Shown here: positions 33,150 through 46,147 of the stretch, piece by piece
Layout of the letters: every line of letters begins with the position of its first letter
Numbering within the stretch: the stretch's first letter is position 1
Source of the DNA: an uncultured delta proteobacterium
GTDB taxonomy: Bacteria > Desulfobacterota > Syntrophia > Syntrophales > Smithellaceae
Assembly (NCBI GenBank): GCA_963811325.1
Contig: CAWEQT010000002.1
Coordinates: forward strand, 316,777 to 380,776
Length of the DNA: 64,000 bases
Reading direction: 5' to 3'
Notes under the pieces: model-generated
Told to the model about the DNA's origin: nothing
Databases searched by the model: none
The model's input: only the letters and a program-made list of their open reading frames with translations
Position numbers and translations under genes: made by a program

Positions 33150-33176
33150 GTTACAGAATTATGACAATTCTGTTAA
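33150..33176 (-). promoter_or_regulatory. Pho box plus -10 element of the porin promoter
   Basis: The minus strand reads TTAACAGAAT-TGTCATAATTCTGTAAC. The core TTGTCAT-AATT-CTGTAAC matches the E. coli PhoB consensus CTGTCAT-N4-CTGTCAT. It is followed 10 nt later by TACATT. A near-identical site lies at pstS. Confidence 0.7.
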
Positions 33177-36353: not shown

Positions 36354-37121
36354 TCAACCGAATCTCCCTGTTATATAGTCTTCTGTTTGCTTTGCATCAG
36401 GATTGGTAAATATTTTATCAGTCTTATTATATTCGACAAGATTCCCCAGATAAAAGAACGCCGTCTCATCGGAAATACGAGCAGCCTGCTGCATATTATG
36501 CGTCACGATAATAATAGTATAGTCCTTTTTCAGCTCTTCAATCAACTCTTCAATTTTCGCCGTGGAAATAGGATCAAGCGCAGAGGTCGGCTCGTCCATT
36601 AACAAGACATCCGGTTTCATGGCCAAAGCTCGCGCGATGCAAAGCCGCTGCTGTTGTCCTCCGGAAAGAGCCATTGCCGATTTATTCAATAAATCTTTTA
36701 CTTCATCCCACAAAACAGCTTGTTTGAGACTTTGCTCCACTAGAGTATCAAGATCGCTGTTTCCCAATCCGTTTAGTTTAGGTCCATAAGAGATATTGTT
36801 ATAGATAGTTTTCGGGAAAGGATTTGGTTTTTGAAATACCATCCCGATCTTCCGGCGAGTTTCCACCGGGTCAATATTATCGGCATAGATATCTTTTCCT
36901 TCAAAAACGACCTTCCCTTCCACCCTTGTCCCGATAATAAGATCATTCATCCGATTCAAAAGCCTCAGCAATGTAGATTTGCCGCAACCGGATGGCCCAA
37001 TCAGAGCGGTCACCTTCTTTTCAGGAAAATCCATGGAGATGTCATTCAGGGCGCGCGATTGGCCATAGTAAAAATTTACATTATGCAGACTAATTATCAT
37101 GTTCACATCCATACTTACCAC
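36354..37121 (-). CDS. pstB: phosphate ABC transporter ATP-binding protein PstB
   Basis: Walker [10 protein letters not shown], signature LSGGQQQRL and Walker [12 protein letters not shown]. The start is either the GTG at 37121 or the ATG at 37112. Confidence 0.95.
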
Positions 37122-37993
37122 CTTTTATTTTTCCTCATGCGGCCGCGGATAATAATGGCCAACATATCGATCCCCAGAACAACAGCAATAAGAACAAGCA
37201 CGGTTCCAAATTGCATCGGCCTGGTTTCTTCAATATGAGTGCCCGCCGTAGCCAGAACGTATATATGATAGGGCAGAGCCATAACTTCATCAAAAATGGA
37301 ACCCGGTAATTTTGCGGTAAAGAAAGCCGCCGCCGTAAACATAATTGGCGCAGTCTCTCCGGCAGCGCGGCCGACGCCTAGAATAGAGCCTGTCAGGATT
37401 CCCGGCAGGGCGTTGGGCAAAACAATCCGGAAAATAGTCTGCCACTTGGTGACGCCAAGCGCCAGAGATGCCTCGCGGAATGACTGAGGCACAGCTTTCA
37501 GCGCCTCTTCGGCAGCGCCAATGATTGTCGGCAGAATGAGAAATCCGAGGGTTAGTGAACCGGACAGAATGCATGAACCAAATTTCAGCATTACTACAAA
37601 CAAACCAAGACCAAATAGTCCGAAAACAACTGAGGGCACTCCCGCCAGACAATTTATCCCTATCTTGATAATTCTGATCACCCTGCCTTGTACGGCATAT
37701 TCCGTTAAATATATTGCCGAAGCCACACCCAGCGGCAAACCTATGCAGATCGCCCCAACAGTTAAATATATAGTACCCACGATAGCCGGCATAATCCCGC
37801 CTTTCGTCATGGAATCCATGGGCATCTTGGTGATGAAATCCCAGCTGATGACGCCAATCCCGTTAATTACAATATATAATAAAAGCCCGCCCAGAGCGAG
37901 GGCAATGATCAAAAATGATAATCGCACAATGCCGAAGAAAAGTGTTTGCTTTAGATATCGCCACCTCATTGAACTGTTCATTGATTTATTCAT
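37115..37993 (-). CDS. pstA: phosphate ABC transporter permease PstA
   Basis: 292-aa permease with the EAA-type loop [18 protein letters not shown]. Confidence 0.9.
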
Positions 37994-38005
37994 ATATCAA
38001 TCCAA

Positions 38006-38893
38006 TCAAAGCGTTGCCGAACCTGATTGATGAAACTTATGAGAAAGATAATCCGCAATCAAATTAAACGCGAGTGTCAGAAAAAACAAAACTATGCCTA
38101 TGGCAAACAAAGCTTGATAATGGGCGCCACCAAAAGGCGCCTCTCCCATTTCCGCGGCAATGCTGGCTGGCATTGGCCGGACTGAATCAAAAATACTTCC
38201 GGGAATGGCCGCTGCTCCGCCCGCAACCATCAAAACAACCATTGTCTCACCAATCGCTCTCGATATTCCCAGTATAACCGCAGTAGAAATACCCGATAGC
38301 GCGGAAGGGACAATCACTTTAGCGATTGTTTCAAATCTGGTCGCGCCCAAAGCATAGGACGCTTCTTTAAATTCATTGGGAACGGCGTAGAGAGCGTCTT
38401 CTGAGATGCTGGATATAGTTGGTATTGCCATAATTGCCAGTATAACAGACGCGTTTAGAATGTTCAGACCTGTCGGCAAATCAAAAGTCTCCTGCATCCA
38501 CGGGGCGACAATGACCATACCGAAAAAACCTAAAACTACGGAAGGTATTCCGGCTAAAAGCTCAATAATCGATTTAAGTATCTCTTTTATTGAAACCGGC
38601 GCAATTTCCGCGATGTAGATAGCTGAAAGAACTCCTAGAGGAACGGCTATTAAAATTGCCAGAAAAGTTACGATGACAGATCCCACGATCAGTGAGAAAA
38701 TACCGAAAGACGCCGGATCAGATGTCGGATACCAATCTTTTCCTAAAAGAAAATCACTTAAGGAAACTAATTTGAATATCGGCATTCCTTCGCGGAAAAG
38801 AGAAATAACAATCAGGCCCAGCACGATAATTGACACCAGCGCAAAAGAAAAAAAGATATATTTAATAATATTTTCACTGGTTTTTCTCTTCAT
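38006..38893 (-). CDS. pstC: phosphate ABC transporter permease PstC
   Basis: 295-aa permease (EDALYAVPNEFKEASYALGATRFE). Confidence 0.9.
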   Translation of the reverse strand: MKRKTSENIIKYIFFSFALVSIIVLGLIVISLFREGMPIFKLVSLSDFLLGKDWYPTSDPASFGIFSLIVGSVIVTFLAILIAVPLGVLSAIYIAEIAPVSIKEILKSIIELLAGIPSVVLGFFGMVIVAPWMQETFDLPTGLNILNASVILAIMAIPTISSISEDALYAVPNEFKEASYALGATRFETIAKVIVPSALSGISTAVILGISRAIGETMVVLMVAGGAAAIPGSIFDSVRPMPASIAAEMGEAPFGGAHYQALFAIGIVLFFLTLAFNLIADYLSHKFHQSGSATL

Positions 38894-38935
38894 TATTTTG
38901 CCTCTAATTTTTAGTTTTCCGGGAGAACGTCGTTT

Positions 38936-39163
38936 CTATTTAAATTTTCTTCCGATCAGTTTTTTTATTTCATCACGGATTTTTCTAAATTCTTCAGCAA
39001 TATCTTCCGGTGATCCTTTCAGCACTGACATAGTAATCGGCTTTACCTATGCTGTCGCTGAAGGCATCATAACGCTTTCCATAAAAGTAATTTAGAATCG
39101 CTTTGGCCATTTGTGAACGAACTGAATTATTAGTGCAGATAAATATAACTCTTTTCTTTTCCA
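38936..39163 (-). pseudogene. internally deleted LMW-PTP / thioredoxin-type arsenate reductase (ArsC-like) remnant
   Basis: The N-terminus reads [22 protein letters not shown] (CX5R loop) for about 43 codons. After a frame shift, the family C-terminus [25 protein letters not shown] follows. About 60-70 central codons are missing. Confidence 0.6.
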
Positions 39164-39196
39164 TAGTCACTTAGATTTTGTTTCTAAAATATAATC

Positions 39197-39224
39197 GGCA
39201 ACCCCGTTAATTTGCGGGGCTGCC
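39197..39224 (-). terminator. hairpin downstream of pstS (possible intra-operon attenuator)
   Basis: ggcaaccccg/ttaatttg/cggggctgcc has a 9-10 bp stem with 1 mismatch. It is followed on the minus strand by GAUUAUAUUUU. Confidence 0.45.
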
Positions 39225-39248
39225 TGATTAAAGCAATTTTCTGAAAAA

Positions 39249-40097
39249 TTATTTTTTGGTTTTTTTCCTTTCTTTAGAAGCTGTAAGCGGCACGAACCCT
39301 TCTTTCTTTACAATTTCCTGTCCTTTAGGACTTTTAACAAAAGCGATAAATTTGGCAACTTCACCCTTAGGTTCACCGTTAGTGTACATGTAAAGTTCTC
39401 GGGACATTGGATATTGTTTGGATAATGCAGTCTGTGCCGAAGCCATGACGCCATTTACTTTCAGTCCCTTAACACTGTTATTCACATAACCCATACCAAG
39501 ATAACCGATAGCATATTTATTTTTAGCAACCGCTGTGAGTACTGCTCCGTTGGATGCCAGCATCTGTGCGGTCTGAGCAACTCTGGCTTTTTTCATAACA
39601 AAGTTATCCCATGAATCGAATGTGCCAGAGGAAGAATCTCTGGAGATAACGATTATTTTTAAATCAGCGCCACCTACTTCCTTCCAGTTGGTAATTTTCC
39701 CCTGATATATCTGGCTTAACTGATCAATTGATAAACCTTGAACATTATTTTTCGGATTTACCACCGGCATAATTGCATCATAGGCTATAACATGGGCAAC
39801 GGGTTTAACTCCCTTGGATTCGGCCAATTTGATTTCTTCTTTTTTAATCTCTCTGGAGGAATCGGCAATATCAGTGGATTGATCGATTAATGCTTTGATT
39901 CCCTCACCGGAACCTCCGCCCGATAAAGAAATCTGGACGCCTTTATTTTCTTTCATATAGGCTTCGAGCACAGCCTGCGCTATGGGTAAAACGGTTGTCG
40001 ACCCTTTAATTACTATGGAATCGGCAGCAACAGCGAGGCTACCCATAAAAGTTACTAAAACCATGCTGAAAATTATTTTCTTAACAATATTGATCAT
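39249..40097 (-). CDS. pstS: phosphate ABC transporter substrate-binding protein PstS
   Basis: 282 aa with a signal peptide and PBP-fold motifs (GSTTVLPIA, SGGGSGEG, SRDSSSGT). Confidence 0.9.
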   Translation of the reverse strand: MINIVKKIIFSMVLVTFMGSLAVAADSIVIKGSTTVLPIAQAVLEAYMKENKGVQISLSGGGSGEGIKALIDQSTDIADSSREIKKEEIKLAESKGVKPVAHVIAYDAIMPVVNPKNNVQGLSIDQLSQIYQGKITNWKEVGGADLKIIVISRDSSSGTFDSWDNFVMKKARVAQTAQMLASNGAVLTAVAKNKYAIGYLGMGYVNNSVKGLKVNGVMASAQTALSKQYPMSRELYMYTNGEPKGEVAKFIAFVKSPKGQEIVKKEGFVPLTASKERKKTKK

Positions 40098-40145
40098 TTT
40101 CTATACCTCCCTGATTTTAAATTTAAAGTATTATAAATATTAAAT

Positions 40146-40163
40146 GTTACAGTTTGATGACAA
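40146..40163 (-). promoter_or_regulatory. Pho box of the pstS promoter
   Basis: The minus strand reads TTGTCAT-CAAA-CTGTAAC. It is followed 10 nt later by TATAAT, and then by GGGAGG and the ATG (40097). Confidence 0.75.
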
Positions 40164-40236: not shown

Positions 40237-41289
40237 CTAAATATTCTTTTCTATGATTTGGATGTTTATTGAAGAGCAGGTTACGCTACTCTTGCCGGCA
40301 TAAACAAAGGCAACTATCCATAAAACAACCAGGAAAATAATTAGACCGGGATTCCAGAGAGATTTAATACCAATTAACAAATTGGGCAAACCGCTATCAG
40401 GCTCTTTAATAAATGGAACCACCAGGAGAGTATAACCAATGGCAAACAATATCATAATCTGGTAAGCAGAAATGAAACCTTGCCCCCGATAATCGGCCCG
40501 CAGGAATTCGGAAGCAAAACGCCATCCCTGCGTTATTAAAAGCGCGATTATCAAAGCTGCATAGGCCGTACCTCTCAAAAACAAGTAAAAGCTAATAAAC
40601 CCCGCACCAGTATATATAACTGCTGTAAGTGCTTGGATAGGAACAACCGTTTGACCTTCGAGCTGCTGGGCATACGCAATTTTTTTCGTCTTCCCCCGAA
40701 ATACAAAATTCCACTTACGAAAGATTCTTTTAATTAACGGATGACATGCAGAGAGAGGTTTCCCATAACAACAACCGAAACTTATGCAGGCAAGCCGGCC
40801 TATCCCTTCACCGAAAGCATAGGCAACAACTATTGCTGCCATGGTTTCTAACATCGGCACCCGGAACTCCAGCCAGTTACCTAACGTTATATTGACCAGC
40901 CATATGATCCACGGTGCAATCAAGATACCGGCAAAGGAAGCACCTCCTATGGAAAATGTGTGATGTTTCTTTTCCACCAAGCGGGCAATTAAGCGAGAGG
41001 CCAGCATGCAAATTGCTAAAAACGGTGTAACAAGAGATATGGTTCCTGCAATCTTAATGCCCAGCGAACCCATCATTATCAAGAATATGACAACTGCAAA
41101 CAGATAGGCCAAAGCATTAAAAAATCCATAATAGGTTAAATTAATACCATTCCAAATTCCATCTTGCCCCTTGCGCGTAGGCAGACAGGCAAGAACTTGC
41201 CAATTTTCTTCGGGCAGTGTTCTAAAAGCCCATGAGAATAAAACTGCAATCACTCCTGCAAGAACCAATGTAAAGATTTCATCATACAT
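40237..41289 (-). CDS. prolipoprotein diacylglyceryl transferase (Lgt) family membrane protein
   Basis: 350 aa and polytopic. It has the Lgt-family variant motif GRLACISFGCCYGKP and a distal FASEFLRADYRG. This is a family-level call only. Confidence 0.6.
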   Translation of the reverse strand: MYDEIFTLVLAGVIAVLFSWAFRTLPEENWQVLACLPTRKGQDGIWNGINLTYYGFFNALAYLFAVVIFLIMMGSLGIKIAGTISLVTPFLAICMLASRLIARLVEKKHHTFSIGGASFAGILIAPWIIWLVNITLGNWLEFRVPMLETMAAIVVAYAFGEGIGRLACISFGCCYGKPLSACHPLIKRIFRKWNFVFRGKTKKIAYAQQLEGQTVVPIQALTAVIYTGAGFISFYLFLRGTAYAALIIALLITQGWRFASEFLRADYRGQGFISAYQIMILFAIGYTLLVVPFIKEPDSGLPNLLIGIKSLWNPGLIIFLVVLWIVAFVYAGKSSVTCSSINIQIIEKNI

Positions 41290-41695
41290 GATTATAAGAT
41301 ATACCCCTTACAGCTAATCGTCTGCTCTTTTGTTTATTATTAATCTCGCATTTCTCCTGACATTCCACACATAGTTTGCTCATCGGTTCAATTAAAAGTC
41401 TTTTTTCACGAATAACTCTTCCGCAATGATCGCAAATGCCAAACAAGCCTCTGTCAATACGCATAATCGTTTCCTTGATATCGAGAATTAATTCTCTTTC
41501 TCTATCTCTGCAGGTCAATTCAACAAACTTGTTAGTCTCGATTGCTGCTTGGTCAAATGGATCGGCAAATTTACCATCACCATTTTTCATTTTAGAAATT
41601 GTATTGTCCGCACTCGACCAAAGCTCTTCCATCTTTTTCACTAAGGCATTCCTGATAAACTGGATTTTTTCTTGCTTCATAATTATTACCTCCAT
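41282..41695 (-). CDS. dksA: DksA/TraR-family C4 zinc-finger RNAP-binding regulator
   Basis: ADPFDQAAIE (the DxxDxA tip) is followed by RDRERELILDIKETIMRIDRGLFGICDHCG...CVECQ. There is an 8-nt overlap with the downstream gene. Confidence 0.8.
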   Translation of the reverse strand: MEVIIMKQEKIQFIRNALVKKMEELWSSADNTISKMKNGDGKFADPFDQAAIETNKFVELTCRDRERELILDIKETIMRIDRGLFGICDHCGRVIREKRLLIEPMSKLCVECQEKCEINNKQKSRRLAVRGISYNHV

Positions 41696-41723: not shown

Positions 41724-42728
41724 TCAATGATTGCAAGAACTGGCAATAAATGATCTAACCTTAACATCAGTTTCGACCAGAGATTTACCAAAACCACTGC
41801 TGAAAATACTTTTGGCAGAAGGATAAAACATGTTGGCTGAAATATCATCCGCAAATCGTACTCTATTTTTTTGAAATATGAGGACTACTGTCGAACTCCC
41901 CGGACGGAAAAGGCTTTTGGGAGCACCCTTATTCACAAACATTCCTGTTCCGATAGGAATAGGACTTTCATATTTTTTTTCGCTATAGCACTGAACTATA
42001 TCGCCGATCATTAGCGCAACTACTTCAACCATGGCCACTAAACCAGCTTTAGTTCCACCTTCTATATCGGTATCAATAATGGTAACGAAGCGCTTATTTT
42101 TAGAATAAGGCGTTACAACGGAAACAACGGCATTAGGATTACATGCGTGATAATTGCCCTGAATTTGATAAAAGTCGATAATTTTTCCGGCAACAGGCGT
42201 ATGATTGTAATGATATTTTTCCGGTGTCAACCTGAAAACCGCAAAGTCACCATCCTGAAAGGCTGCAAGCCATGTGCGTTTATCACAGCCAAACATCTCC
42301 TCATAATCAAAGAACTTTCCCTTAACAAACAAACCCGACTCTTCCAAAAATGATCCCAATAGCATCCGGGAATCGGCTGGTGATACAATGGCACGCGGAT
42401 CATTGGGCATGGGACGGCATTCCCAATAACGAATTCTTCGTTCGAATATTTTTCTCAATGAATCCAAACTTTCCGGAGCATCCAGGCATTCTTGCGTTTC
42501 AATATTCAATTGTTTGTGTATATCAAGATAATGCTTCATCCTGGCAGCAAGGATTCCATCATAGTTCATATAACTAAGCACACGCGAAACTCTGGCGCTT
42601 GTCAATTGGCGAAAGAGCCAGGAAGATCGCTCACGGATACTGGCATAAAGAAACTGTACAGCCTGATCGCCGTAGAACTGTTCCGTTTTTATTTGGCGGG
42701 TATCACGCTCGATATAATTATGCTGCAT
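41724..42728 (-). CDS. psd: phosphatidylserine decarboxylase proenzyme (pyruvoyl type)
   Basis: 334 aa. It has IVSPADSRML (an SPADG-like motif) and the self-cleavage region FRPGSSTVVLIF. The start overlaps the upstream ORF by 11 nt. Confidence 0.75.
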   Translation of the reverse strand: MQHNYIERDTRQIKTEQFYGDQAVQFLYASIRERSSWLFRQLTSARVSRVLSYMNYDGILAARMKHYLDIHKQLNIETQECLDAPESLDSLRKIFERRIRYWECRPMPNDPRAIVSPADSRMLLGSFLEESGLFVKGKFFDYEEMFGCDKRTWLAAFQDGDFAVFRLTPEKYHYNHTPVAGKIIDFYQIQGNYHACNPNAVVSVVTPYSKNKRFVTIIDTDIEGGTKAGLVAMVEVVALMIGDIVQCYSEKKYESPIPIGTGMFVNKGAPKSLFRPGSSTVVLIFQKNRVRFADDISANMFYPSAKSIFSSGFGKSLVETDVKVRSFIASSCNH

Positions 42729-45162
42729 AATTTTTTTCCCGATCCTTAATGTCTTGAATTTTTTGATTAAGTTCAGTCTTATAGTGGATGTGCACTAAAA
42801 TAATACTGATCAGTTTCTCCAGCGTATCTCTGGACGCGTTTTCTTCAATGATTTCCCGTTCGGCCTGATTTATAAATTTTGTTGTATTCGTTTCTTTCAA
42901 AACCGTATTGAGCAAACTTCTAACGTCCTGCAATAAACCATCGGATACATGATCCAGTTTGATCATATCTTCGCCAAGAAACTCAAATGCTTCCCGAATA
43001 TGCCGATTGCGGAGATCTGTCCGGTAATATTTCTCTGCCGCCTGATTAAACTTATCGGCAGTCAAATCCAGCGGCGACCTGGCATCAGCCGTGTTAAGAA
43101 TGCCACTTGTTAGCCTGCCGCAAGCAGAATAAAGTTCCGGCTCGTTGAGACGGAGTTCAAGCTCGTCGATGCTCTCTCTCATTGACAGCATTTCAATGAG
43201 ATCTGACGCGTCCTCGCGGAGAATTTTCAACAGCGCCCGCCGGTATTCAATGTTGTAAATTCGCGCGTATCCCGGATACCTTCGACTGGGGCGCACGCGA
43301 TCCGTTTTACTTATAATCTTTTTTATGAAGGTATTGCCGCTTTTGTTATGCACAAAGAAAGTCGGAATGCCTATCGCTGAACCAAAAAATATTTGTCTTC
43401 TTTCACTTTCGATAGAAGGATCATCAGGAATATTATCATGACTTATCTGACCGGAGAAAATATACTTAAATGCTAAAAGATAGAAAAGGTTTTGCATGCT
43501 CACTGCCGGCCCCATATCCTGTGTAAAACTTTCAAAGAGGCTGTAATGACGTCCTTCAAAACCGGAAAAACCCATTACGTCGTATTCGCGAAGCTTCTCG
43601 AGAAGATAAAGCGACATCTTTGTATCAAACACACCAAGATCGGCAAGGTCTTCTTTTAAAGTCTGACTATTGCGTAGTTCACCGTTTAACGCGGGGCTCT
43701 TATCCGTACTCATCAAAACTATCAGATAATCAATTAGCCGGAAATCGGCAATAAAATCTCCCTTTAAACTGAAGGCCGTACTAATTAGATTGTCTATCCA
43801 TCTGGGGCCAAAAGGAGTGATGGACTTGCCCAATATATTCAGATTAGCTTTCTTCTGCCAGCGCCGCCAGAGCATACGCAAATGGGTATAGTCCAATTCA
43901 TGAGGAAGGAAGCCTAGGGCTTTCTCCGGATGAAAATCGTTAAATTCAAGGCGATAGGGAGCAGCGCTGTATGTACCTACAAAAAGCGGTAAAAAATGCT
44001 CGACAATTTTAACAACCAGATCGCCAATGTATTTTTCTTCTCTTCTGGAAAATCCCGAAGAATGATCCTGCAGCATAAGGCTGAGTTTCCGGCTTCCCAG
44101 ACTCACGTGTGTACCATTATTGGCGAGGCTGATATTAGATAAATTAGGCAGTGATACCAGATTACTGGTAATGATTCCTGCTTCCCTGAGTTTCAATACA
44201 GCGTTGAATTGGCTGCGACTCAGAACCCGGTGACACAGATGCATGTATTCATTCTTTTCTTCACCTCTATCCCATCCCGATAAGCAGGGGTTCATGAACA
44301 GTTCACGATAAAAAGCATCAGAAACGCAATTACTTAAAACTTTCTGTCTGGTTGGCGGATGAGGCGATAAAAAGATCATCGCTTTTTGTCCTGTCTCCTG
44401 AAGTGAGTAATTCAGGTTGGCATGCATGATCAACAACTGGCTTAATAAAAAGCGGACCGCCATCTCCTTGGCTGCGGCACGCCCCATACCGGCCTCCGAC
44501 TGCATGAAAGTAACATAGAAAGATGAAGTTTCCGGCGATGTATTGTCATTCAAATAATATTGCATAATATTCAAACCGGTCTTGCTAATCAGAGGATGGA
44601 CTTTCCGTTGCGGATCAATTATCTCCGCAAGAGATAGCTTCAGGAGATAACTAATCGGAACCCGAATATATTCAAGATTATCTTTTTGAAAAATAAATCT
44701 GTTCAAGTCCGACCGTTGACCGGCAGAAATATTTCCCTTGTCCGCCAGCATATCTCGCCGGAAAATACTCTCAGCGAGAACTCCCATCTTATCTCTAGGA
44801 AAACGAACCCAACTGTTTTCCCAGACACCTTCAGTATTTATATTTAAATATTTTTCCAGGTCGGTCATAACTTTTTGGGAAGCATCTCCCGTTTTTGCCC
44901 GTCTTTTAGTGTTGGCAAAGTAATTGGATTGTTCTATTAAAAGGGGCAGGTCAACATTGTTCTTGTTGCCGACGACAACTGTCTGCATTTCCGATTCACT
45001 ACCAGCAGTTGTATCCGAAGGTGCAAAAGGCAATGAGCTGACATTTAAACCTGAGCGATCATGTTTTACACCAATTAGTTCCGATATCTCTCTGATAGAT
45101 TTGGGGGTAATATGGTCTAGTCTTACCAGATAATTAAGCGTGGCAGTGTTTACTTTGCTCAA
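42718..45162 (-). CDS. large soluble protein of unrecognised family (814 aa)
   Basis: A long uninterrupted ORF. The TTG start lies 7 nt after GGAAGGGG. I spotted no TM segments, Walker A, HExxH or HKD motifs by eye. GC content looks native. Confidence 0.7.
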   Translation of the reverse strand: MSKVNTATLNYLVRLDHITPKSIREISELIGVKHDRSGLNVSSLPFAPSDTTAGSESEMQTVVVGNKNNVDLPLLIEQSNYFANTKRRAKTGDASQKVMTDLEKYLNINTEGVWENSWVRFPRDKMGVLAESIFRRDMLADKGNISAGQRSDLNRFIFQKDNLEYIRVPISYLLKLSLAEIIDPQRKVHPLISKTGLNIMQYYLNDNTSPETSSFYVTFMQSEAGMGRAAAKEMAVRFLLSQLLIMHANLNYSLQETGQKAMIFLSPHPPTRQKVLSNCVSDAFYRELFMNPCLSGWDRGEEKNEYMHLCHRVLSRSQFNAVLKLREAGIITSNLVSLPNLSNISLANNGTHVSLGSRKLSLMLQDHSSGFSRREEKYIGDLVVKIVEHFLPLFVGTYSAAPYRLEFNDFHPEKALGFLPHELDYTHLRMLWRRWQKKANLNILGKSITPFGPRWIDNLISTAFSLKGDFIADFRLIDYLIVLMSTDKSPALNGELRNSQTLKEDLADLGVFDTKMSLYLLEKLREYDVMGFSGFEGRHYSLFESFTQDMGPAVSMQNLFYLLAFKYIFSGQISHDNIPDDPSIESERRQIFFGSAIGIPTFFVHNKSGNTFIKKIISKTDRVRPSRRYPGYARIYNIEYRRALLKILREDASDLIEMLSMRESIDELELRLNEPELYSACGRLTSGILNTADARSPLDLTADKFNQAAEKYYRTDLRNRHIREAFEFLGEDMIKLDHVSDGLLQDVRSLLNTVLKETNTTKFINQAEREIIEENASRDTLEKLISIILVHIHYKTELNQKIQDIKDREKNYAA

Positions 45163-45448
45163 ATACTATCCCCTTCCAATATATTTCTTTAGTTTTACGA
45201 AGAGATGATAACTTTTCAATATTTCATTATGATGAAGTAATAGAGAAGATTTGATTAAACATTCCAACAAGAATTATCTGAAAAAATGATTTTCCGGGAA
45301 GCTATCTTTATAAATTCAACTATTTAGAAAGTTTGTGTCAGCTTTTCTATGATTAGATAATGATTTTTCACTTAATTAAAAATATTCATAACTCTGAAAT
45401 AATGGTCTGCACACAGATAGGCCAAACGTCATTTAAGGGAAAGGGGCT

Positions 45449-46147
45449 TTATTTGATTTCGGCAAATTTATAACCGAATCCCCGAACTGTTAAAATGTAA
45501 CGAGGATTTTCTATATCCTTTTCAATTTGGCTGCGCAGGCGGCGGATATGAACATCCACGGCGCGGTCTGTGATAAAAGTATCATCACCCCAAACATAAT
45601 CAAGAAGCTGATTTCTCGAATATACCCTGCCGGGATTGCGGGAGAAAAAGAAAAGGAGTTTGAGTTCCGTGGGGCTTAATGTTACCGGCTTACCGTCAAT
45701 CTTCACGGCGCAAGAGGCGTAATTGATAGCCAGACCCTTGTAATGAAACGCTTCCGGCGCCTTTGTTTCCGGTCTTTCCTGCAAACGCCTCAGAACAGTT
45801 CTTACGCGGGCGACCAATTCTTTGACGCTGAAAGGTTTGGTCATGTAATCATCGGCGCCGATTTCCAGCCCGAGTATCTTATCTAATTCTTCGCCCTTGG
45901 CCGTAAGCATGATTATCGGCAAGTCAGCGGTCGCCGGATTGGCACGAATCTTTTTACAAATATCAAGCCCGTTCATACCGGGCAACATTAAATCAAGAAT
46001 CAGCAGGTCAGGTTTTTTCGTCGCGATTATATTGAAAACAGAGACACCTTCATAGGCTTTTATTGTAGAAAATCCTTCTTTCTCCAGATTATAAGAAATC
46101 AGTTCCACAATATCCTGTTCGTCATCAACAATCAGAATTTTAGACAT
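45449..46147 (-). CDS. phoB: OmpR/PhoB-family response regulator, likely PhoB
   Basis: 232 aa. It has a receiver domain (DDEQD...DLMLPGMNG) and a winged-helix domain (RAVDVHIRRLRSQIE). It lies near the pst-phoUR cluster. Confidence 0.75.
   Translation of the reverse strand: MSKILIVDDEQDIVELISYNLEKEGFSTIKAYEGVSVFNIIATKKPDLLILDLMLPGMNGLDICKKIRANPATADLPIIMLTAKGEELDKILGLEIGADDYMTKPFSVKELVARVRTVLRRLQERPETKAPEAFHYKGLAINYASCAVKIDGKPVTLSPTELKLLFFFSRNPGRVYSRNQLLDYVWGDDTFITDRAVDVHIRRLRSQIEKDIENPRYILTVRGFGYKFAEIK

Follow-up and report, generated by a model that had tools for sequence, protein, structure and literature searches.

A probable ligase of a new sequence family, encoded with Psd-like and Lgt-like paralogues, as a candidate for phosphorus-free membrane lipid synthesis in Desulfobacterota

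A 64,000-nucleotide stretch of contig CAWEQT010000002.1 (positions 316,777 to 380,776; assembly GCA_963811325.1), from an uncultured member of the Smithellaceae (Desulfobacterota), was analysed here and is referred to as the window, with position 1 being its first letter. It encodes an 814-residue protein that a first-pass annotation, made from the sequence alone, could not place in any family. We find that its gene opens a conserved unit of three enzymes, in which it is followed by a paralogue of phosphatidylserine decarboxylase (Psd) and then by a paralogue of prolipoprotein diacylglyceryl transferase (Lgt), a third member that the first-pass annotation had not connected with the other two. 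The protein is very probably a carboxylate-amine ligase of the glutamate-cysteine ligase (GCL) fold that works together with the two lipid-enzyme paralogues. Our overall reading, toward which the balance of evidence tips somewhat, is that the new-family ligase, the Psd-like and the Lgt-like enzymes respond to scarce phosphate by making a membrane lipid that contains cysteine and no phosphorus.

A conserved three-gene unit

To survey gene neighbourhoods, 100 related loci were searched by tblastn for the genes that surround the ligase in the window; 89 of these loci held enough sequence. The Psd-like gene lay directly downstream of the ligase gene, on the same strand, in 83 of the 89 loci, and the Lgt-like gene came next in 82. 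Adjacency to psd is therefore kept outside the source genome, and this conservation strongly supports the shared function that had been proposed for the ligase and the coupled decarboxylase. Among 301 evenly sampled genomes of the phylum, 35 encode the ligase, 35 the Lgt-like protein and 34 both; the two exceptions among the 36 carriers are fragmented assemblies. Three loci (L081, L083 and L102) contain ligase homologues that lack a Psd-like or Lgt-like gene in the following 6 kb but have phoB, phoR or phoU nearby; their partner genes may be encoded elsewhere in those genomes.

The distribution of the trio is patchy. It occurs in ~12% of Desulfobacterota, ~3% of Planctomycetota and ~1% of Acidobacteriota, and it was absent from one genome of the same genus and three of the same family that were examined. 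Carriers include Smithella and other Syntrophales, Geobacteraceae (Trichlorobacter thiogenes, Citrifermentans bremense and Geomonas), Desulfuromonadales and Desulfobacterales (among them Desulfococcus and Desulfonema ishimotonii) and Syntrophorhabdus, and, further afield, anammox bacteria, Nitrospinae, some Acidobacteriota and some Gammaproteobacteria. Very high bit scores between phyla suggest that the trio has spread horizontally.

Within the window, the ligase open reading frame (ORF) stands as first described, with the clarification that it lies on the minus strand. Its TTG start (45162-45160) is preceded, at a spacing of exactly 7 nucleotides, by the Shine-Dalgarno sequence GGAAGGGG (45177-45170), and since all 13 close relatives have both the TTG and an AGGAG-type Shine-Dalgarno sequence, the start call can be trusted. 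The constancy of TTG among the close relatives examined may mean that translation initiation is deliberately kept weak or regulated. The ligase stop codon (42718-42720) falls inside the Psd-like ORF, whose ATG is at 42728, giving the 11-nucleotide overlap ATGCAGCATAA, as the first-pass annotation had also noticed. Its other impressions of this ORF held on re-examination: the G+C content is native (42.5% against 42.0% for the window), no transmembrane helix is predicted (maximum Kyte-Doolittle 19-residue mean 1.35) and the ligase sequence contains no Walker A, HExxH or HKD motif. Given this native composition, a horizontally acquired island was dropped as an explanation for the ligase gene.

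Sequence family and predicted fold of the ligase

The ligase matched nothing in Pfam or NCBIfam (E ≤ 0.1), among PDB sequences (phmmer) or in a PDB profile search, in agreement with the earlier view that it belongs to no recognisable family by sequence. More than 2,900 homologues were found, labelled 'hypothetical' apart from two jgi-derived 'DivIVA' labels, and a search of 1.84 billion representatives with the ligase profile returned 865 representative clusters. The 150 clusters listed of these 865, all at E 1e-65 or better, offered no bridge to a named family. The 78 family sequences compared, with identities as low as 33%, share dozens of invariant His, Glu, Asp and Arg residues. The number of homologues and clusters, together with these invariant residues, establishes the ligase as a real, constrained gene.

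Comparison with the curated GCL families was likewise negative. No match above the gathering score was obtained to PF04262 (Glu_cys_ligase) or PF04107 (GCS2), and a six-frame search with PF04107 did not detect the ligase in the source genome or in the carrier genomes searched. Using hhalign, a diverse ligase alignment gave no significant match to nine GCS2 proteins (E 0.3), where the only aligned stretch paired FLPLFVGTYSAAP of the ligase with lPll.AlsAnSP, or to Escherichia coli GshA (E 0.15). Since these hidden Markov model (HMM) and HH comparisons with GCS2 and GshA were not significant, the ligase is a new sequence family, inside the known superfamily that shares the GCL and glutamine synthetase (GS) fold and outside the curated GCL families.

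The evidence for this superfamily is structural. With an alignment of 40 close homologues, AlphaFold2 (AF2) gave only a poor model, with a predicted local distance difference test score (pLDDT) of 65, and its fold search was meaningless. A diverse alignment (A2), for which homologues were collected anew from a divergent gammaproteobacterial member of the family, remedied this and yielded a model with a pLDDT of 90.7 and a predicted template modelling score (pTM) of 0.92. In a Foldseek search of this model against the PDB, the top 11 matches were all GCLs (including 3nzt, 2d32, 1va6, 1v4g, 2d33, 3ln7 and 3ig5), with probabilities of 0.84-1.00, E-values of 1.5e-3 to 0.14 and target TM-scores of 0.32-0.48. 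They were followed by the Pup ligase and depupylase PafA/Dop and by GS-type enzymes, among them 1-naphthylamine GS. The predicted model thus falls into the GS/GCL superfamily, at modest E-values, and the YbdK/GCS2 ligases (PF04107), PafA/Dop and the glutamine synthetases belong to the same fold class. The search strategy suggested in the first-pass annotation, profiles followed by AlphaFold and Foldseek, accordingly ended with empty profiles and a GCL fold, and no assignment to an unrelated, well-characterised family emerged.

Conserved motifs point in the same direction. The family retains G54-x-E56-x-E58, N348-x-G350-x-H352, P392...P402 and E536-x-R538, with E56, E58, H352, E536 and R538 invariant across the 78 sequences, and these five residues are located on predicted strands 51-58, 351-357 and 534-540 of the AF2 model. 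Four segments are collinear with segments of the E. coli GshA sequence: AGSESE (residues 54-58) with GLERE, NNGTHVSLGS (348-357) with SGVHYNFS, LPLFVGTYSAAP (391-402) with IPYLFGASPA, and FEGRHYS (535-541) with IEVRS. These GshA segments reportedly hold the Mg-binding residues E27, E29, H150 and E328. The ExE, His and ExR residues expected for metal and nucleotide binding are therefore present on predicted strands of the ligase, matched by sequence collinearity. The first-pass annotation had singled out LANNGTHVSLGS as recalling a strand of carboxylate-amine ligases or GS-type enzymes; this segment aligns with the His-150 strand of GshA, SGVHYNFS, and the impression is borne out by the Foldseek ranking. 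Judged from the model and these motifs, the protein is presumed to be an ATP-dependent carboxylate-amine ligase of the GCL/GS fold.

The best structural match is to GshA-type GCLs, represented by the E. coli (1V4G, 2D32 and 1VA6), Francisella (3NZT) and yeast (3IG5) enzymes and by the N-terminal domain of Pasteurella GshF (3LN7). The G-x-E-x-E and G-x-H strands, the P..F.G..S..P segment and the E-x-R strand follow one another as they do in GshA, and the use of ATP, formation of an acyl-phosphate on the carboxylate and attack by an amine are presumably shared as well. The ligase differs from GshA in showing no detectable sequence-profile similarity to it, in being ~300 residues longer, with an insertion of ~200 residues separating the ExE strand from the His strand and a helical C-terminal domain (~640-814), and in its constant linkage to two lipid enzymes.

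Two paralogues of lipid enzymes

The Psd-like protein matches PF02666 with 131.5 bits (cut-off 22; E 4e-38), and its profile recovers E. coli Psd at 1e-15 as well as the PsiD tryptophan decarboxylases. Its residues D119, H173 and G277-S278-S279 are invariant, and the protein aligns with the PADG and PRDYHRVH segments of E. coli Psd. Besides the HMM match, it has the Asp, His and Ser residues needed for autocleavage and a GS(S/T) site, as in Psd (E. coli, PDB 7CNW and 6L06) and PsiD. In contrast to Psd, it scores far under the curated cut-offs, staying below every NCBIfam Psd equivalog threshold (best 136.5 bits against 371), and it is not the sole Psd of the genome: a second, better-scoring copy lies at G000:C1:1258089-1258592 (169.7 bits). 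A housekeeping role for the Psd-like gene was dropped in view of this copy, and its substrate is presumed to be other than phosphatidylserine. The downstream gene that had been called psd is consequently a PF02666 pyruvoyl decarboxylase, as proposed, but a second, divergent paralogue.

The Lgt-like protein is a similarly remote relative of a familiar enzyme. Among orthologues encoded in the cassette, 18 of 19 match PF01790 (best E 7e-11). The window gene scores 29.9 bits in a six-frame search (cut-off 24.9), hmmscan of its protein returned no match at E ≤ 0.1, and a canonical Lgt elsewhere in the source genome scores 241.8 bits. E. coli Lgt was not retrieved when the Lgt-like alignment was used for a profile search of the PDB; the Pfam scan of the orthologues did recover the family. 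Invariant Y54, G55, R165, R257, E261 and R264 correspond to Y26, G27, R143, R239, E243 and R246 of E. coli Lgt, all of which are essential for diacylglyceryl transfer (Mao et al., PMC4728403). The protein therefore carries both the family match and the catalytic-type residues, but it departs from canonical Lgt in several respects. The full signature GR.GNF.N.E..G is not retained: the Lgt sequence GRLGNFINGELWG is replaced by GRLACISFGCCYG, in which N146 and E151 have become invariant Cys. Both termini carry extra transmembrane helices. Charge is also distributed the other way round: in canonical Lgt, the signature loop and matching elements are periplasmic and acidic (PMC4728403), whereas in the Lgt-like protein ~20 Lys and Arg residues lie on the side with the signature loop and the WRxxSExxRxDYRG segment, compared with ~2 on the opposite side. 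On the basis of the positive-inside rule, this reversed bias and the additional N-terminal transmembrane helix, the core of the second Lgt copy is predicted to be inverted, with its active site facing the cytoplasm and not the periplasm.

These properties bear on an account in which the ligase and the decarboxylase make a soluble molecule, either a low-molecular-weight thiol or a polyamine-like amide (gamma-glutamyl-cysteamine or 4-aminobutanoyl-cysteine), or in which the ligase tags a protein or peptide in the manner of PafA, and the Lgt-like enzyme lipidates a specific peptide or protein. Such an account draws on the nearest folds, since GCLs make a soluble thiol dipeptide and PafA/Dop are protein ligases, on the activity of the PSD-family enzyme PsiD toward soluble amino acids, and on the protein cysteines that canonical Lgt targets. 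We regard it as quite unlikely, however: related loci show no conserved small ORF or lipobox-bearing substrate gene accompanying the trio, the inverted core predicted here would face away from exported prolipoproteins, a soluble thiol needs no membrane diacylglyceryl transferase, and the Pho-regulon context described below is better suited to lipid replacement. For the synthesis of a membrane lipid, which we favour, a cytoplasmic active site would bring the Lgt-like enzyme into the same compartment as the soluble ligase and the Psd-type enzyme.

A DksA/TraR-family gene is found at the cassette position in ~21 of the 100 loci, all of them Smithella-type; in the window its end overlaps the start of the Lgt-like gene. 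It was dropped as a core member of the trio because of this restriction to Smithella-type loci; its product might place the operon under stringent or starvation control. The coordinates of the cassette and its surroundings are compiled in Table 1.

Table 1. Coordinates of the three-gene unit and adjoining features in the window
Feature	Coordinates	Strand	Remarks
pstS-pstC-pstA-pstB	36354..40163	minus	Directly downstream of the cassette; perfect Pho box 40146-40163
350-residue polytopic Lgt-family paralogue, presumed diacylglyceryl transferase	40237..41289	minus	Orthologues match PF01790; active site predicted to face the cytoplasm
137-residue DksA/TraR-family zinc-finger protein	41282..41695	minus	PF21157, PF01258; between the Psd-like and Lgt-like genes
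334-residue Psd-family pyruvoyl decarboxylase paralogue	41724..42728	minus	PF02666; start overlaps ligase stop by 11 nucleotides
814-residue soluble protein, presumed ATP-dependent carboxylate-amine ligase	42718..45162	minus	Founding member, in the window, of an unannotated family; GCL/glutamine synthetase fold
Shine-Dalgarno sequence GGAAGGGG	45170..45177	minus	7 nucleotides 5' of the ligase TTG start
Predicted ligase promoter	45205..45238	minus	Pho-box-like ACTTCATCATAATGAAAT (45238-45221), 10 nucleotides, -10 TATCAT (45210-45205)
PhoB-type response regulator	45449..46147	minus	Directly upstream of the ligase; orthologues of 74-93% identity in the same position in relatives

Phosphate context and the proposed lipid

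The cassette is embedded among phosphate genes. Along the minus strand, phoB is followed by the ligase, psd-like, dksA-like and lgt-like genes and then by pstS-C-A-B, phoU and phoR, an arrangement that recurs in Smithella-type genomes. Across the survey, ~22 of the 100 loci have pst or pho genes within 6-8 kb, in varied arrangements and seemingly in at least six families. Inspection by eye identified an alkaline phosphatase, a PhoH-like ATPase and a fusion of a PHP-phosphoesterase with a GT4-glycosyltransferase as other recurrent neighbours of the trio. Perfect copies of TTGTCATNNNNCTGTAAC occur on the minus strand upstream of a porin gene (33150-33167) and of pstS (40146-40163), each 10 nucleotides before a -10 hexamer, and these copies define the organism's Pho box. 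Upstream of the ligase, alignment with 13 relatives exposed the degenerate element ACTTCATCATAATGAAAT, which is conserved in 14 related genomes and comes nearer to the Pho-box consensus in several of the relatives (for example CTGTCATCATAGTGAAAC); the predicted promoter has the same architecture as that of pstS (box, 10 nucleotides, TATAAT). In the 350 nucleotides upstream of ligase orthologues, Pho-box-like sites are ~9-fold enriched. Searches for RNA runs covering the cassette in the window, or the gene of D. alkenivorans discussed below, returned none. Phosphate regulation of the cassette in the source genome is plausible on this sequence evidence.

This context also helps to assess whether the trio might modify an ordinary aminophospholipid, the Psd-like enzyme making phosphatidylethanolamine or a related amine, the ligase gamma-glutamylating or amidating it to an N-acyl-amino phospholipid, and the Lgt-like protein being accessory or flippase-like. 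Psd-family enzymes do normally use phosphatidylserine, GS/GCL-fold enzymes gamma-glutamylate varied amines (1-naphthylamine GS is among the fold matches), and the translational coupling of the ligase and psd-like genes fits a product-substrate pair. Yet such a modification would give no role to a strictly co-inherited Lgt-like enzyme with its catalytic Arg pair, would save no phosphorus and so leave the repeated Pho-regulon context unexplained, and would duplicate a canonical Psd already in the genome; we consider it unlikely. A phosphorus-free product, as we prefer, is consistent with a lipid class known from Desulfatibacillum alkenivorans.

Under phosphate limitation, Desulfatibacillum alkenivorans PF2803T is described as replacing phosphatidylethanolamine, phosphatidylglycerol and cardiolipin with glucuronosyl lipids and 'N-butyramide cysteine glycerol' (BACys) lipids, the BACys share rising from under 1% to about 65% of lipids and the phosphorus:nitrogen:sulfur (P:N:S) ratio shifting to 5:63:32 (Ding et al, 2024, PNAS, PMC11181052). 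That paper proposes no genes for BACys (PMC11181052), and we found no literature that names BACys genes or describes this gene trio. The P:N:S ratio reported there indicates two nitrogens and one sulfur per BACys molecule. By exact-sequence look-up, one of the surveyed trios (L045, genome G038) corresponds to SHK73306.1, SHK73347.1 and SHK73389.1 of D. alkenivorans DSM 16219, which we take to be the type strain PF2803T; on this assumption, the BACys producer itself carries the trio. Its three genes are contiguous and on the same strand, its ligase is 52% identical to the window protein, and the trio is also present in D. alkenivorans strain AK-01.

Several further observations concern these loci. 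Upstream of the DSM 16219 trio (L045:2908-6582) are two tandem glutamate-synthase core proteins of ~550-580 residues (PF01645) and a GAF-ANTAR regulator, which may be linked to glutamate supply or regulation. Public records label SHK73347.1, SHK73389.1 and ACL02231.1 as 'phosphatidylserine decarboxylase' or 'prolipoprotein diacylglyceryl transferase'; these partner labels are probably functional mis-annotations of specialised paralogues. In four other loci (L034, L038, L039 and L051, from genomes G300, G223, G278 and G200, respectively), a protein of ~820 residues is encoded beside or inside the cassette; judged by eye, it resembles an N-terminal PHP-type phosphoesterase domain fused to a C-terminal GT4 glycosyltransferase. 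It is a candidate phospholipase-C-plus-glycosyltransferase for glycolipids, such as glucuronosyl lipids, that accompany BACys during phosphate starvation.

The three enzyme families have well-established chemistries. GCL joins the gamma-carboxyl group of glutamate to the amine of cysteine; Lgt transfers diacylglyceryl from phosphatidylglycerol to a cysteine thiol with release of glycerol-1-phosphate; and PSD-type pyruvoyl enzymes decarboxylate a free alpha-amino-acid end. By analogy, the ligase would attach the glutamate gamma-carboxyl to the amino group of cysteine, either free or already lipid-linked. The cytoplasm-facing Lgt-like enzyme would move a diradylglyceryl group from a phospholipid onto the thiol, freeing glycerol phosphate and making its phosphorus reusable, and the Psd-like enzyme would strip the alpha-carboxyl from whichever alpha-amino-acid end is free. 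This sequence would yield S-diradylglyceryl-N-(4-aminobutanoyl)cysteine or, should decarboxylation precede ligation, its isomer S-diradylglyceryl-(gamma-glutamyl)cysteamine. Both candidate head groups have the composition C7H14N2O3S and would give a phosphorus-free zwitterionic lipid with two nitrogens and one sulfur. Ligation, S-diacylglyceryl transfer and alpha-decarboxylation would thus lead to the head group of BACys, itself a phosphorus-free, phosphate-starvation-induced N2S1 lipid, or to an isomer of it.

That the trio builds a phosphorus-free thioether aminolipid of the BACys type seems to us close to evenly balanced, with a slight lean in favour. The fuller proposal is put forward more tentatively, as possible but falling a little short of that balance: the trio would be the complete BACys (N2S1) pathway, in which an inverted Lgt-type enzyme uses a small-molecule thiol of the cytoplasm as its acceptor, and this pathway would be common among Desulfobacterota (syntrophs, relatives of Geobacter and sulfate reducers) and sporadic in anammox Planctomycetota, Acidobacteriota, Nitrospinota and some Gammaproteobacteria. 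The first-pass annotation had suggested that the large enzyme supplies the substrate of the decarboxylase, perhaps a serine-containing head group. Functional coupling of the two is supported, but we infer that the head group is more likely built from cysteine/glutamate, with a thioether to diacylglycerol, than one containing serine.

The assignment to BACys can also be weighed against the possibility that the trio makes some other phosphorus-free or remodelled lipid, such as a diacylglyceryl-serine, a homoserine-derived lipid or another amide, with BACys coming from unrelated genes. This possibility is helped by the correlative nature of the trio's presence in the BACys producer, by the tentative nature of the BACys structure and by the signature residues of the Lgt-like enzyme, which differ from those of Lgt. 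Against it, the chemistries of GCL (glutamate plus cysteine) and Lgt (cysteine thiol) converge on cysteine, the three chemistries combined predict the N2S1 C7 head group reported for BACys, and we found no other candidate genes in the literature. We judge it very unlikely.

Several points weigh against a BACys-type product and its phosphate control. To our knowledge, no PSD-family enzyme decarboxylates a gamma-glutamyl or S-alkyl-cysteine head group, and no Lgt uses a small-molecule acceptor. The sequence link between the ligase and GCLs is invisible to HMM and HH comparisons and the best Foldseek E-value is only 1.5e-3, so that the superfamily assignment rests on one predicted structure and short motifs. 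A strict search for TTGTCATNNNNCTGTAAC, allowing at most 3 mismatches, found the pstS and porin boxes only and none upstream of the ligase, ACTTCATCATAATGAAAT matches the pstS box at only 11 of 18 positions, and the neighbours of the trio in D. alkenivorans are not Pho genes. Occurrence of the trio in the BACys producer constitutes weak, correlative support, with a likelihood ratio of roughly 8, because of its ~12% prevalence in the phylum. The BACys structure is itself tentative, being derived from MS2 (tandem mass spectrometry) only, and the linkage between head group and glycerol is unstated in the paper's text as available to us (PMC11181052).

Phospholipids are also exchanged under Pho control by the PlcP/Agt glycolipid, BtaAB betaine lipid, OlsBA/OlsF ornithine lipid and SqdB sulfolipid systems, as outlined in the BACys study (PMC11181052). 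The trio would follow the same logic with entirely different enzyme families; two things would be new in comparison, an amino-acid head group attached through a thioether and trans-diacylglycerylation that draws directly on a phospholipid.

Replacement of phospholipids during phosphate starvation is well understood in aerobes and phototrophs, which turn to glycolipids, betaine lipids, ornithine lipids and sulfolipid. The trio provides a specific three-gene candidate for an orphan sulfur- and nitrogen-containing lipid class of anaerobic sulfate reducers. If the proposal is correct, the Lgt-like protein would be the first relative of Lgt that produces a membrane lipid in bulk, recycling the phosphate head group in the same step, the Psd-like protein would be a PSD-family enzyme acting on a non-phospholipid head group, and a GCL-fold family would supply the amide bond. 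The GCL/GS fold would thereby gain a new sequence family, and Lgt-type and PSD-type chemistry would extend to new substrates. More than 2,900 'hypothetical proteins' would receive a fold-level assignment, and the Psd and Lgt labels of their neighbours would be flagged as probably functionally wrong. Lipid biomarkers of anoxic sediments would become readable in genomic terms, and the phosphorus economy of syntrophs, metal reducers and anammox bacteria would become predictable.

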